A DNA stretch of 9,831 nt, taken from the IMG/VR virus record IMGVR_UViG_2645727901_000016; one strand, written 5' to 3'. Below are positions 7,793 through 9,831 of the stretch, in pieces (within the stretch, counting starts at the first letter, position 1; each line of letters starts with the position of its first letter). Origin of the DNA: a virus (lineage: Duplodnaviria > Heunggongvirae > Uroviricota > Caudoviricetes). Below the pieces are notes generated by a model. It did no database searches, was not told where the DNA came from, and worked only from the letters and a program-made list of their open reading frames with translations. Both the position numbers and the translations under genes were made by a program.

Positions 7793-7819
7793 CAGCGCTG
7801 ATCAGGCACTGGGAAAAAT

Positions 7820-7845
7820 GGTCAGGATGGTACTTATTCCTGACC
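7820..7845 (+). terminator. hairpin (8-bp perfect inverted repeat GGTCAGGA / TCCTGACC, 10-nt loop) followed by a weak T-rich stretch; possible terminator or protein-binding palindrome
   Basis: Direct reading of 7820-7845 plus the downstream TCTGTTTCC. Located between the AlpA-like and PerC-like genes. Confidence 0.25.
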
Positions 7846-7901
7846 TCTGTTTCCGCCTGGCTGTATCTGCTGGCGGTAATTTTCATAGAAGGCTGGATCC
7901 G

Positions 7902-8201
7902 ATGAGCAAATTAACCCGTCTTGAAAAGTATCACCTGAACTATGTGTCTCAGCGTCAGGCTTCAAAGGTTGTCGCCGTAACTCCTGCGGCGATGGAGGTA
8001 GAAAAGCGCGCTGTTGAGCGAGAATCGAAAGGCCAGTTCCGCATTGCAGCCAGGCTTTGGTTGCTGTGCATGGATGCAGCAGTCGGTGAGGTTGAACGCG
8101 CAAGGATAGCGATACGCCGCGATCAGTGCATATCGAAAGGTAACGGCCTGCGCCGTGGTGAATACGCAGGGATCGGATGTCGCGGGGTGGTGTATGACTA
8201 A
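7902..8201 (+). CDS. PerC/ANR-family-like small transcriptional regulator (tentative)
   Basis: 99 aa from the ATG at 7902. Segment EVEKRAVERESKGQFRIAARLWLLCMD...RRDQCIS resembles the PerC-family core (LE.RG.YRRAA.RW ... C). The 7818 start is also in frame. Confidence 0.45.
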   Translation: MSKLTRLEKYHLNYVSQRQASKVVAVTPAAMEVEKRAVERESKGQFRIAARLWLLCMDAAVGEVERARIAIRRDQCISKGNGLRRGEYAGIGCRGVVYD

Positions 8202-8352
8202 CCCTCACGACAATATCCGCGTCGGTAGCATCACGCTGGTTTATTCATCTCTTCGTTGCGGATGGATTGTGCCAGGCAGAAAGGTTATCAAAAACCCATT
8301 AAAGGCTCAGCGCATTGCTGAGCTGATGAATAATAAGAAGGTTGCAGCATGA
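8194..8352 (+). CDS. small hypothetical protein (about 52 aa)
   Basis: ATG at 8194 overlapping the end of the PerC-like gene. Its stop overlaps the ATG of the ASCH gene (ATGA). An alternative GTG start at 8155 exists. No family recognised. Confidence 0.35.
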   Translation: MTNPHDNIRVGSITLVYSSLRCGWIVPGRKVIKNPLKAQRIAELMNNKKVAA

Positions 8353-9011
8353 AAGAGCGCGGAATGATTTTCAACGAGCACCAAGTGCGTGCCCTGCTTG
8401 ATGGCAGCATGACGCAGGTTCGTCGGCCCATAAAATGGCGTCAGACTCGGGCTACAGAAATTGCAGAACGTGAAGACGGTAGCCGGTGGCCGTGGAGTGA
8501 GGATGCTGAAAATGTGTGCGATTACTGGCATCCATGTCCATTCGGTGCAGTCGGCGATGTTATTTACGTCAGAGAGTCATTTTCACGGCTCGACGCATTT
8601 AACTTCTTCGATTCCGCCGTGCCTCATGAAGTCCCGGATTTCTGGTATTGGGCAGATGGTGATCCGGAGTGGGGAGACTGGACACGCCCACAATCTGGCG
8701 CAGTCATGCCTCGCGCCGCCAGCAGAATCAGCCTGGAGATAACCGGAATTCGCGTCGAGAGGCTTCAGAATGCCGATGAATCAAACCTCCTGAATGACCT
8801 TGGAGATATGCTAGAGCATTGCGATACCGTCGCAGGCCGCGCCTTCAACCATGCAGAGCATTATGCGATCGCAGGCGTTCCGGTTGGATTATGTCCGGAA
8901 ATGCATGGCTTTAAAGCGTGGTGGGACAAGGTTAACGGAGCTGGCAGCTTTTATTCCAACCCGTGGGTCTGGGTGATCGAGTTTAAGCGCATTGAAGGCG
9001 GTGCAGCATGA
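8349..9011 (+). CDS. ASCH (PUA-like) domain protein with insertions, 220 aa
   Basis: N-terminal FNEHQVRALLDGSMTQVRRP, GDVIYVRE, and C-terminal WVWVIEFKRI parallel E. coli YqfB (ILAGRKTITIR ... GDVLRV ... FYVIEFK) as I recall it. AAGAAGG Shine-Dalgarno 8 nt upstream. Stop overlaps the methyltransferase start. Confidence 0.65.
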   Translation: MKERGMIFNEHQVRALLDGSMTQVRRPIKWRQTRATEIAEREDGSRWPWSEDAENVCDYWHPCPFGAVGDVIYVRESFSRLDAFNFFDSAVPHEVPDFWYWADGDPEWGDWTRPQSGAVMPRAASRISLEITGIRVERLQNADESNLLNDLGDMLEHCDTVAGRAFNHAEHYAIAGVPVGLCPEMHGFKAWWDKVNGAGSFYSNPWVWVIEFKRIEGGAA

Positions 9012-9655
9012 CCGTTAAATACACACTTATCTACGCTGATCCGCCTTGGGTCTACCGCGATAAAGCCGCCGACGGCGAGCGCGGTGCCGGGTTTAAATAC
9101 CCAGTAATGAACGTGTTGGATATCTGCCGCCTGCCGGTTTGGGATCTGGCAGCCGACGATTGCCTGCTGGCTATGTGGTGGGTGCCGACGCAGCCGGTTG
9201 AGGCACTGAAGGTAGTCGAGGCGTGGGGCTTCAAGCTGATGACCATGAAGGGATTCACCTGGCACAAGACGAATAAGCACAAAGGAAACAGTGCGATCGG
9301 AATGGGCCACATGACCAGGGCGAATAGCGAAGACGTACTCTTTGCGGTACGCGGAAAACTTCCTGCACGAATGGACGCCTCTATCTGCCAGCATGTCACG
9401 GCGCCGCGCCTGGAGAACTCGCGCAAGCCGGACGTGATCAGAGAGAAACTGGTGCAGCTGCTGGGCGATGTGCCGCGCATTGAGCTTTTCGCCCGCCAGT
9501 CGTCGCATGGCTTCGATGTATGGGGAAATCAGTGCGACGGTCCGGCAGTGCAACTGCAACCTGGTTATGCACTAGATATCTCAGGAATGGCGAAGGCATT
9601 CAAAAACGCCCCGCTATCACCATCAGACAGCCAGGGACGGGAGCGTGCAGCATGA
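9008..9655 (+). CDS. MT-A70-family DNA N6-adenine methyltransferase (phage orphan methylase)
   Basis: DPPW catalytic motif at residues 11-14 (LIYADPPWVY). 215 aa. This is the typical prophage MT-A70 architecture. No restriction endonuclease gene is adjacent in the window. Confidence 0.85.
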   Translation: MTVKYTLIYADPPWVYRDKAADGERGAGFKYPVMNVLDICRLPVWDLAADDCLLAMWWVPTQPVEALKVVEAWGFKLMTMKGFTWHKTNKHKGNSAIGMGHMTRANSEDVLFAVRGKLPARMDASICQHVTAPRLENSRKPDVIREKLVQLLGDVPRIELFARQSSHGFDVWGNQCDGPAVQLQPGYALDISGMAKAFKNAPLSPSDSQGRERAA

Positions 9656-9831
9656 ATATGTTCAATGAGGCGGAGTTAATCCGCCAACTGGAAGAGCAGC
9701 GCGCTGTGATTGTGCAGAAAAGCGCGCAAGTTAACTGGCTGCAAACGGAAAATAGTGTCTTGCATAAGAAATGCGAAGAACTGCAAATGACAGTTGAACT
9801 ACAGCGAGAATTTATACAATCCAGAAATTAA
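9652..9831 (+). CDS. small coiled-coil hypothetical protein (59 aa)
   Basis: ATG at 9652 overlaps the methyltransferase stop (ATGA). Heptad-like sequence ELIRQLEEQRAVIVQ...CEELQMTVELQREF. Stop at 9829-9831, the window edge. Confidence 0.45.
   Translation: MNMFNEAELIRQLEEQRAVIVQKSAQVNWLQTENSVLHKKCEELQMTVELQREFIQSRN

Follow-up and report, generated by a model that had tools for sequence, protein, structure and literature searches.

A predicted ASCH-fold protein with a degenerate catalytic octapeptide next to an MT-A70 adenine methyltransferase gene in a lambdoid Escherichia coli prophage

The window analysed here is a 9,831-nucleotide stretch of DNA from the IMG/VR virus record IMGVR_UViG_2645727901_000016 (Caudoviricetes), and it represents the early-left operon, from recombination to integrase, of a lambdoid E. 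coli prophage integrated beside guaA. It encodes a protein of 220 amino acids (aa), the gene of which runs into the start of a gene for an MT-A70 adenine methyltransferase (Table 1). We consider it moderately probable, taken as a whole, that the 220-aa protein is a divergent ASCH protein in which YqfB-type catalysis was lost and that it lies beside an independent methyltransferase cassette. The canonical members of its family would be YqfB-like hydrolases deacylating an N-acylated base such as N4-acetylcytidine (ac4C). In the subclade of the window allele, the catalytic Lys/Thr pair would have become Met/Val, with the scaffold and Arg-rich surface residues kept by strong purifying selection, so that the window allele most likely lacks YqfB-like chemistry and is probably a non-catalytic binder of nucleic acid or of a modified nucleotide. 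The ASCH cassette would have been inserted at a generic linker, composed of a Shine-Dalgarno (SD)-like run and the 9-mer GCAGCATGA, which would account for its position and for its ATGA overlap with the MT-A70 gene. The insertion would lie in the hypervariable accessory stretch of the E. coli prophage at guaA, which extends from the recombination genes to the integrase. ASCH and MT-A70 would be independent accessory cassettes, co-transcribed and sequentially translated like their neighbours, and not an obligate two-gene system; a role of the ASCH protein as partner for the methyltransferase is unlikely.

The ASCH assignment rests on structure prediction and fold search because recognition by sequence-based methods failed. 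The 220-aa protein gave no match in Pfam or NCBIfam even at an E-value of 0.1 and did not reach the gathering score of the Pfam ASCH model (PF04266), which produced sub-threshold matches in 48 of 82 diverse family members (best E 1.3e-4). A profile of the family found no significant match to solved ASCH structures among the PDB sequences, only insignificant noise from eL14, and with the YqfB sequence as sole target hhalign gave an alignment confined to the region of the octapeptide. For the predicted structure, Foldseek ranked YqfB and PH0355 at the top; EF3133, PF0470, an ASC-1-like protein and ZmASCH also count among the structure-based evidence for an ASCH fold, and in BFVD, a viral structure library, the best matches were uncharacterised phage proteins and an "ASCH domain protein". 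As judged from the predicted structure, the 220-aa protein is a divergent ASCH-fold (PUA-like beta-barrel) protein. An earlier reading made from the sequence only had proposed this ASCH/PUA-like fold, together with a C-terminal VIEFK strand as in YqfB and insertions of about 100 aa, and these points agree with our results: the strand WVWVIEFKR corresponds to FYVIEFKCL of YqfB, and the protein is ~117 aa longer than YqfB owing to three insertions (residues ~28–62, 77–119 and 152–200). Of the checks which that reading had suggested, the search with ASCH/PUA hidden Markov models left the window protein without a match and gave its relatives no more than sub-threshold matches, whereas structure prediction gave the ASCH fold.

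By full-length profile match (E 2.1e-59, residues 1–218) the protein belongs to PHROG 874, a family of unknown function. The family comprises 6824 clusters at 90% identity and, in a library of representatives at 50% identity, 51,999 clusters at E ≤ 1e-3 and 20,800 at E ≤ 1e-30. Its members are nearly all standalone proteins of 200–250 aa, encoded by phages of Enterobacteria, Pseudomonas, Vibrio, Burkholderia, Salinibacter, Myxococcus (Mx8 p14), Microcystis, Flavobacterium and Roseburia as well as by P1-like phages (pmgT). P1 PmgT and Mx8 p14 are full-length homologues of the window protein, with 30–32% identity over 97–99% of the protein, a shared architecture and a similar early/accessory genomic setting; unlike the window allele, they carry the GxKxxTxR octapeptide in its canonical form. 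Members are in some cases labelled "morphogenetic protein", "RNA-binding protein" and "ASCH domain protein", of which the first apparently stems from the P1 pmg annotation "putative morphogenetic" and has no visible basis. In the literature, no functional study of the PHROG 874/PmgT family was found, the term "PmgT" yielding only unrelated uses of the string.

The catalytic residues of the fold allow a closer classification. The published ASCH octapeptide reads GxKxxExR or, in the YqfB type, GxKxxTxR, and in the YqfB-type N4-acylcytidine amidohydrolase Lys21 serves as base, Thr24 as nucleophile, Arg26 in the oxyanion hole and Glu74 as acid. It was shown that the YqfB variants K21A, T24A and R26A are inactive and that the activity of E74A is reduced 1000-fold (PMC6972931). 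TthASCH, EOLA1 and TRIP4 also cannot do without the Lys (bioRxiv 2026.02.27.708502). Conservation within the phage family was tabulated over 149 diverse representatives at 50% identity. The octapeptide reads GRKTQTRR, or closely resembles it, across the family, K/T being present in 146 of the 149 representatives, and the individual positions are conserved to 99% (K21), 98% (T24), 100% (R25), 99% (R26), 100% (E76), 89% (H119), 96% (D146), 100% (E150) and 99% (G151). By hhalign, residues 13–26 of the window protein align with YqfB 13–26, and residues 4–26 of the family with YqfB 4–26. Further downstream, the LEIT-to-AEG stretch aligns ungapped with TIEVT...HAEQEN of YqfB, which would place E150 on E74 and D146 on H70, as read from a by-eye sequence alignment without superposition. 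Because GxKxxTxR and the downstream acidic residue are kept, the canonical members of PHROG 874 are, by homology, most likely hydrolases with YqfB-like chemistry, which would remove the acyl group from an N-acylated base, e.g., ac4C, in a nucleoside or in tRNA.

The window protein departs from this pattern. It fails the octapeptide GxKxx(E/T)xR and reads GSMTQVRR instead, with M21 and V24 at the YqfB catalytic positions; it keeps R26 and has Asp at the family's E150, the position matched to YqfB Glu74 by the ungapped sequence alignment. Next to this exchange of E150 for D150, further near-invariant positions are altered (H119V, W73Y, P116S, S117G, D146N and G151L), and E76, R25, R26, R75, R122, S125 and R126, which are invariant or nearly so in the family, are retained. 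The sequence-only reading had recognised GSMT at the place of the YqfB GRKT, i.e., the change from Lys to Met, and the hhalign alignment of GSMT(QVRR) on GRKT(ITIR) bears this out; the second loss, the replacement of the catalytic Thr24 by Val, had been overlooked. Its suggestion of binding in place of catalysis was reasonable and is strengthened by the family-wide conservation of K21 and T24 and by the published mutants, although it is still inferred. Fold and family motif bring the 220-aa protein closest to the YqfB-type ASCH proteins, but it lacks the defining catalytic residues and stays below the Pfam threshold. We therefore place it in a divergent family of phage ASCH proteins, as a degenerate form, and do not count it as a YqfB-type amidohydrolase. 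With YqfB, a minimal ASCH protein and N4-acetylcytidine amidohydrolase (PDB 9kyf, 1te7), it shares the N-terminal helix and the octapeptide register in residues 13–26 and the C-terminal VIEFK strand, and the family consensus GRKTQTRR plus acidic residue mirrors YqfB K21/T24/R26/E74. It differs by M21, V24 and D150 for Lys, Thr and Glu, by its length (220 aa against 103 aa) with three insertions and by being phage-borne.

Among ~200 close relatives 34 alleles carry M/V and 11 carry M/T at these two positions, therefore the window allele represents a derived enterobacterial subclade. Pairwise ratios of nonsynonymous to synonymous substitution rates (dN/dS) within the degenerate subclade are 0.06–0.18 at dS 0.3–2. 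The degenerate ASCH gene is not decaying; it is under strong purifying selection. The C-terminal third of the protein (residues ~140–200) exists among close relatives in at least two alternative modules, LxxLGDML...AGRAFNHAEHYAIAGV...PEMHGFKAWWDK or the common form ISEEDAxAEG..., and since either module pairs with a canonical or a degenerate octapeptide, recombination inside the ASCH gene is indicated.

The junctions of the operon explain the apparent coupling of the two genes. The sequence-only reading had correctly described the two ORFs (open reading frames) and their overlap, the TGA stop at 9009–9011 sharing letters with the ATG start at 9008–9010, and had taken the overlap as translational coupling of this pair. 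The ATGA overlap is real; its specificity for the pair is not, as it is the generic junction of the operon. The 9-mer GCAGCATGA, which encodes Ala-Ala-stop overlapping a Met codon (ATG), stands at three consecutive junctions of the window, and two of these copies delimit the ASCH gene exactly. In 80 related loci (L008–L087; each locus set used here consists of the best 80 matches of a scan) it occurs in 98 copies, 96 of them on the coding strand, against ~4.3 expected, and it makes up 76 of the 360 ATGA junctions (21%) between ORFs of at least 50 codons. A G-rich SD-like run precedes the 9-mer. Since these junctions are generic, translational coupling is a property of the whole operon, and it is plausible that the linker is a portable element at which, in lambdoid accessory regions, cassettes are exchanged and translation is coupled. 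A fourth exact copy lies inside the ASCH gene at 8404–8412, on the G-S-M-T codons of the degenerate octapeptide. This internal copy is present in 16 of 23 degenerate alleles, the others differing at synonymous positions; it was considered as a selected DNA signal or a recombination scar, and this was rejected, as there is no evidence of selection at the DNA level and the copy is probably a coincidence of codon choice.

Furthermore, the two genes mostly do not travel together. DNA homologues of the methyltransferase gene with 84–90% identity, found in 33 complete E. coli genomes and 24 phages, start exactly at the junction, and the genes upstream of them encode DUF1317, DUF1382, PerC-like, hypothetical or DGQHR proteins. 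Enterobacter phage BUCT554 and E. coli ET846 have no gene between DUF1317 and MT-A70, which meet at the same linker, and homology breaks exactly at the 9-mer. At 90% identity the cluster of the methyltransferase has 3412 members, that of the ASCH allele 274. Seen from the ASCH gene, an MT-A70 gene lies within 4 kb in 15 of the best 80 IMG/VR loci, mostly upstream and at variable distance, and directly downstream in only 3. The usual neighbours are accessory genes (zf-DksA/TraR, DUF4060, Ead/Ea22, DUF4222, RecT, lambda P and NinX), and of 152 neighbour positions ~11 are taken by adenine methylases, which belong to three families; most members of the ASCH family have no methyltransferase beside them. 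No adenine methylase adjoins the distant family members in Mx8, P1, Vibrio, Pseudomonas, Salinibacter and Roseburia phages. Loci retrieved with other accessory genes served as controls: with the unrelated zf-DksA/TraR, a methyltransferase was present within 4 kb in 36 of 43 loci (84%) lacking ASCH versus 33 of 37 (89%) having it, and with DUF4060 in 4 of 47 versus 0 of 33. Methyltransferase proximity tracks phage lineage and not the presence of ASCH. The degenerate octapeptide was also considered as a marker of methyltransferase partnership and rejected, as the MT-A70-adjacent members L030, L075 and L078 carry the canonical motif, canonical alleles also occur upstream of MT-A70, and two degenerate members have no methyltransferase nearby, P0005 sitting between a RecT-adjacent gene and DUF4060 and P0021 between cII and replication genes. 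Fusion proteins as a sign of a functional link were likewise rejected, since by length no ASCH-methyltransferase fusion exists among the 150 best representatives; two of these are extended at the N-terminus, by 72 and 114 aa.

ASCH domains fused to or in operons with N6-adenine methylases, with ASCH as a possible reader of N6-methyladenine (m6A), were proposed by Iyer et al. in 2016 in BioEssays (PMC4738411). The window resembles those systems in that an ASCH-fold gene adjoins an N6-adenine methyltransferase gene, and the reader-writer idea of the sequence-only reading is the one put forward there; it differs in that the association is not conserved, involves no fusion and vanishes against lineage-matched controls. 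The sequence-only reading had put forward a coupled reader-writer or anti-restriction module and had named absence of the pair from other genomes as what would speak against it. This is largely what was found, and the proposal is not upheld: direct downstream placement is restricted to the 3 of 80 loci, the distant phages lack it and the controls show no enrichment. We regard it as very unlikely that the ASCH protein recognises m6A-containing DNA, RNA or nucleotides made by its neighbour or by the host Dam and thereby regulates methylation, shields DNA or, as a ligand sponge, sequesters an alarm nucleotide sensed by a PUA-type defence. PUA-clan domains (YTH, EVE and ASCH) do read modified bases and ASCH was predicted as m6A reader with N6A methylases (PMC4738411); moreover, a PUA-domain defence system senses m6-dAMP, and K21M together with T24V might render the pocket more hydrophobic. 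A conserved linkage to a methyltransferase, however, was not found in the surveyed loci, the distant phages or the controls.

The 215-aa protein itself is an MT-A70 enzyme, as had been claimed from its DPPW motif. It matches PF05063 with a full-length domain (residues 1–172, E 2.4e-23, 83.4 bits against a cut-off of 23.9), and also PHROG 359, PADLOC MTase_II and the PDB chains of MT-A70 and METTL3. The enzyme of an E. coli ET846 prophage is 96% identical over all 215 residues, C-terminal tail included. The tail (9560–9655, residues ~185–215) is variable among relatives, which come in forms of 215, 197–199, 192 and 208 aa. For the Shiga toxin (Stx) prophage phiPA8 it was reported that M.EcoPA8orf6770P, an MT-A70 enzyme, is purified in a 1:1 complex with PNB-2, the winged-helix-turn-helix (HTH)-like product of the immediately upstream gene, and that 16S rRNA in 30S subunits is preferred to DNA by this complex; the DPPW motif of this homologue was mutated to APPA in the same study (PMC10810198). 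This enzyme, to which M.EcoGV is related, is 73% identical to the window methyltransferase over the catalytic core (residues 1–186) with the same DPPW region, lies near the integrase end of a lambdoid prophage and follows an upstream gene that overlaps it by ATGA, as in the window. The tails diverge completely after residue 186, and the tail of the Stx enzyme was suggested to be needed for PNB-2 binding. Whereas the partner there is a winged-HTH-type protein of 143 aa beginning with LKQIAFYRRS, no PNB-2 homologue is present in the upstream slot of the window, which is occupied by the ASCH-fold protein. Across relatives the slot directly upstream of MT-A70 is empty, with DUF1317 abutting, or holds DUF1382, several ASCH alleles, a DGQHR/DndB-like gene (epsilon15-like phages) or PNB-2 (Stx phages), and PNB-2 is the sole occupant with a reported role. 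PADLOC contains no model for the ASCH protein, for diverse family members or for PNB-2, and membership of the ASCH protein in a defence or anti-defence system was rejected as no model matched.

By analogy to PNB-2, to which it is unrelated, the degenerate ASCH protein could bind the MT-A70 enzyme as a specificity subunit and direct it to particular RNA or DNA, the slot holding interchangeable targeting partners. The 1:1 complex with its preference for 16S rRNA (PMC10810198), the 73% identity of the two methyltransferases in the same ATGA-overlapped slot and the reported binding of RNA and tRNA by ASCH domains (bioRxiv 2026.02.27.708502) are in favour of this. In addition, prophages of the guaA lineage keep this arrangement with three different ASCH alleles, and a strongly conserved non-catalytic protein would fit a binding role. 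We nevertheless judge it improbable, as the 96%-identical methyltransferase occurs, tail included, without an ASCH gene and tail length is not tied to the presence of ASCH (215 aa with and without it, 197–199 aa with other alleles). Degenerate alleles away from any methyltransferase, canonical K/T alleles upstream of MT-A70, controls showing no enrichment and the lack of fusions in the 150 best representatives argue in the same direction. A wider version, which we hold with about the same reserve, would make the slot upstream of phage MT-A70 genes a plug-in site for nucleic-acid-binding partners (PNB-2, dead ASCH, DGQHR/DndB-like, DUF1382), each retargeting the same catalytic subunit to different DNA or RNA, and the ASCH pseudoenzyme of the window a repurposed RNA/tRNA-binding specificity subunit. 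It is also unlikely, if a little less so, that the GSMTQVRR subclade retains a hydrolytic or other enzymatic activity, with another modified base or nucleotide as substrate and with other residues (e.g., E76, D150 and the Arg cluster) carrying out the catalysis. The retention of E76, R25, R26, R75, R122, S125 and R126, the conservative nature of D150 for the acidic residue of the family and the strong purifying selection would fit such an activity, and the catalytic logic of TthASCH, which is unlike that of YqfB, indicates that the fold tolerates alternative mechanisms (bioRxiv 2026.02.27.708502). However, no ASCH enzyme tested stays active without the Lys (PMC6972931; bioRxiv 2026.02.27.708502), and the joint alteration of H119V, W73Y, P116S, S117G, D146N and G151L is typical of a relaxed active-site constraint.

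Several points weigh against the explanation that we favour, a degenerate ASCH protein beside an independent methyltransferase cassette. That canonical members have YqfB-like chemistry and that the window allele is non-catalytic are both inferred from conservation and homology, and the window protein may have a different catalytic mechanism, given that E150 to Asp is conservative and that E76, R25, R26 and R126 are kept. Moreover, a close homologue of the window methyltransferase works with a subunit encoded by the gene upstream of it, in ~14% of enterobacterial loci the direct neighbour of a family member is an adenine methylase (three different families of them), and associations of ASCH with N6A methylases were reported in the literature (PMC4738411). 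Finally, the locus sets are lineage-redundant and the ORF calling behind them is heuristic and crude.

The operon as a whole encodes, in this order, a cI-like repressor, a charged protein of 330 aa, a DUF3799 exonuclease, RecT, AlpA, a PerC-like protein, DUF1317, the 220-aa protein, MT-A70 and a 59-aa protein, and the integrase lies just outside the window past the 59-aa ORF. The 330-aa ORF (4499–5491, + strand), which has no Pfam match, has a long, highly charged centre rich in Glu, Lys, Arg and Ala, probably a coiled coil, and its position is conserved across related prophages (L002–L005). The PerC-like ORF (7818–8201, + strand) scores 22.5 bits against a Pfam threshold of 22.6 and matches PHROG 868, "transcriptional activator", strongly; its 127-aa form is probably over-extended, the annotated start in relatives giving a 99-aa product.

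Table 1. Features of the window around the ASCH and MT-A70 genes.
Feature	Coordinates	Strand	Evidence or remark
ASCH-fold gene (predicted), 220 aa, PHROG 874/P1 PmgT-like, degenerate-octapeptide allele	8349..9011	+	divergent member
Codons of residues 19–26, GSMTQVRR, degenerate ASCH octapeptide GxKxxTxR (K21 to M, T24 to V)	8403..8426	+	family tabulation, YqfB alignment (residues 13–26), YqfB mutants
Codons of residues 146–151 (N-L-L-N-D-L); canonical D146...E150-G151, ungapped on YqfB H70...E74-N75	8784..8801	+	family tabulation; by-eye YqfB alignment
MT-A70 adenine methyltransferase gene, 215 aa	9008..9655	+	PF05063, PHROG 359, PADLOC MTase_II, homologues
DPPW, catalytic motif IV of MT-A70, residues 11–14	9038..9049	+	read from sequence; mutated to APPA in homologue (PMC10810198)
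Linker 9-mer GCAGCATGA, DUF1317/ASCH junction, left cassette boundary	8344..8352	+	
Linker 9-mer GCAGCATGA, ASCH/MT-A70 junction, right cassette boundary; preceded by SD-like GAAGGCGG at 8994–9001	9003..9011	+	
Linker 9-mer GCAGCATGA, MT-A70/59-aa ORF junction	9647..9655	+	
DUF1317 gene; true start probably further downstream; directly abuts MT-A70 in related prophages	8155..8352	+	PF07026, E 1e-23
59-aa ORF, PHROG 4701, function unknown; final operon gene before integrase	9652..9831	+	

As a summary, the adjacency of ASCH and MT-A70 in this prophage reflects a mosaic cassette architecture and not a dedicated system, so that the result is mostly deflationary, and the reader-writer idea had already been published (PMC4738411). 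For the family the outcome is more constructive. A family of ~52,000 clusters, which lies below the Pfam threshold and is misleadingly labelled, can be described as ASCH with a YqfB-type catalytic set (98–100% conserved), and with the family recast as YqfB-type ASCH, phage-encoded deacylation of modified bases such as ac4C becomes a directly testable hypothesis. The conserved subclade without the catalytic Lys/Thr provides a natural pseudoenzyme/enzyme pair for dissecting binding. Moreover, the variable slot upstream of the methyltransferase, together with a homologue that needs an upstream-encoded subunit, suggests that phage MT-A70 enzymes may be retargeted in a partner-dependent manner, which can be tested.

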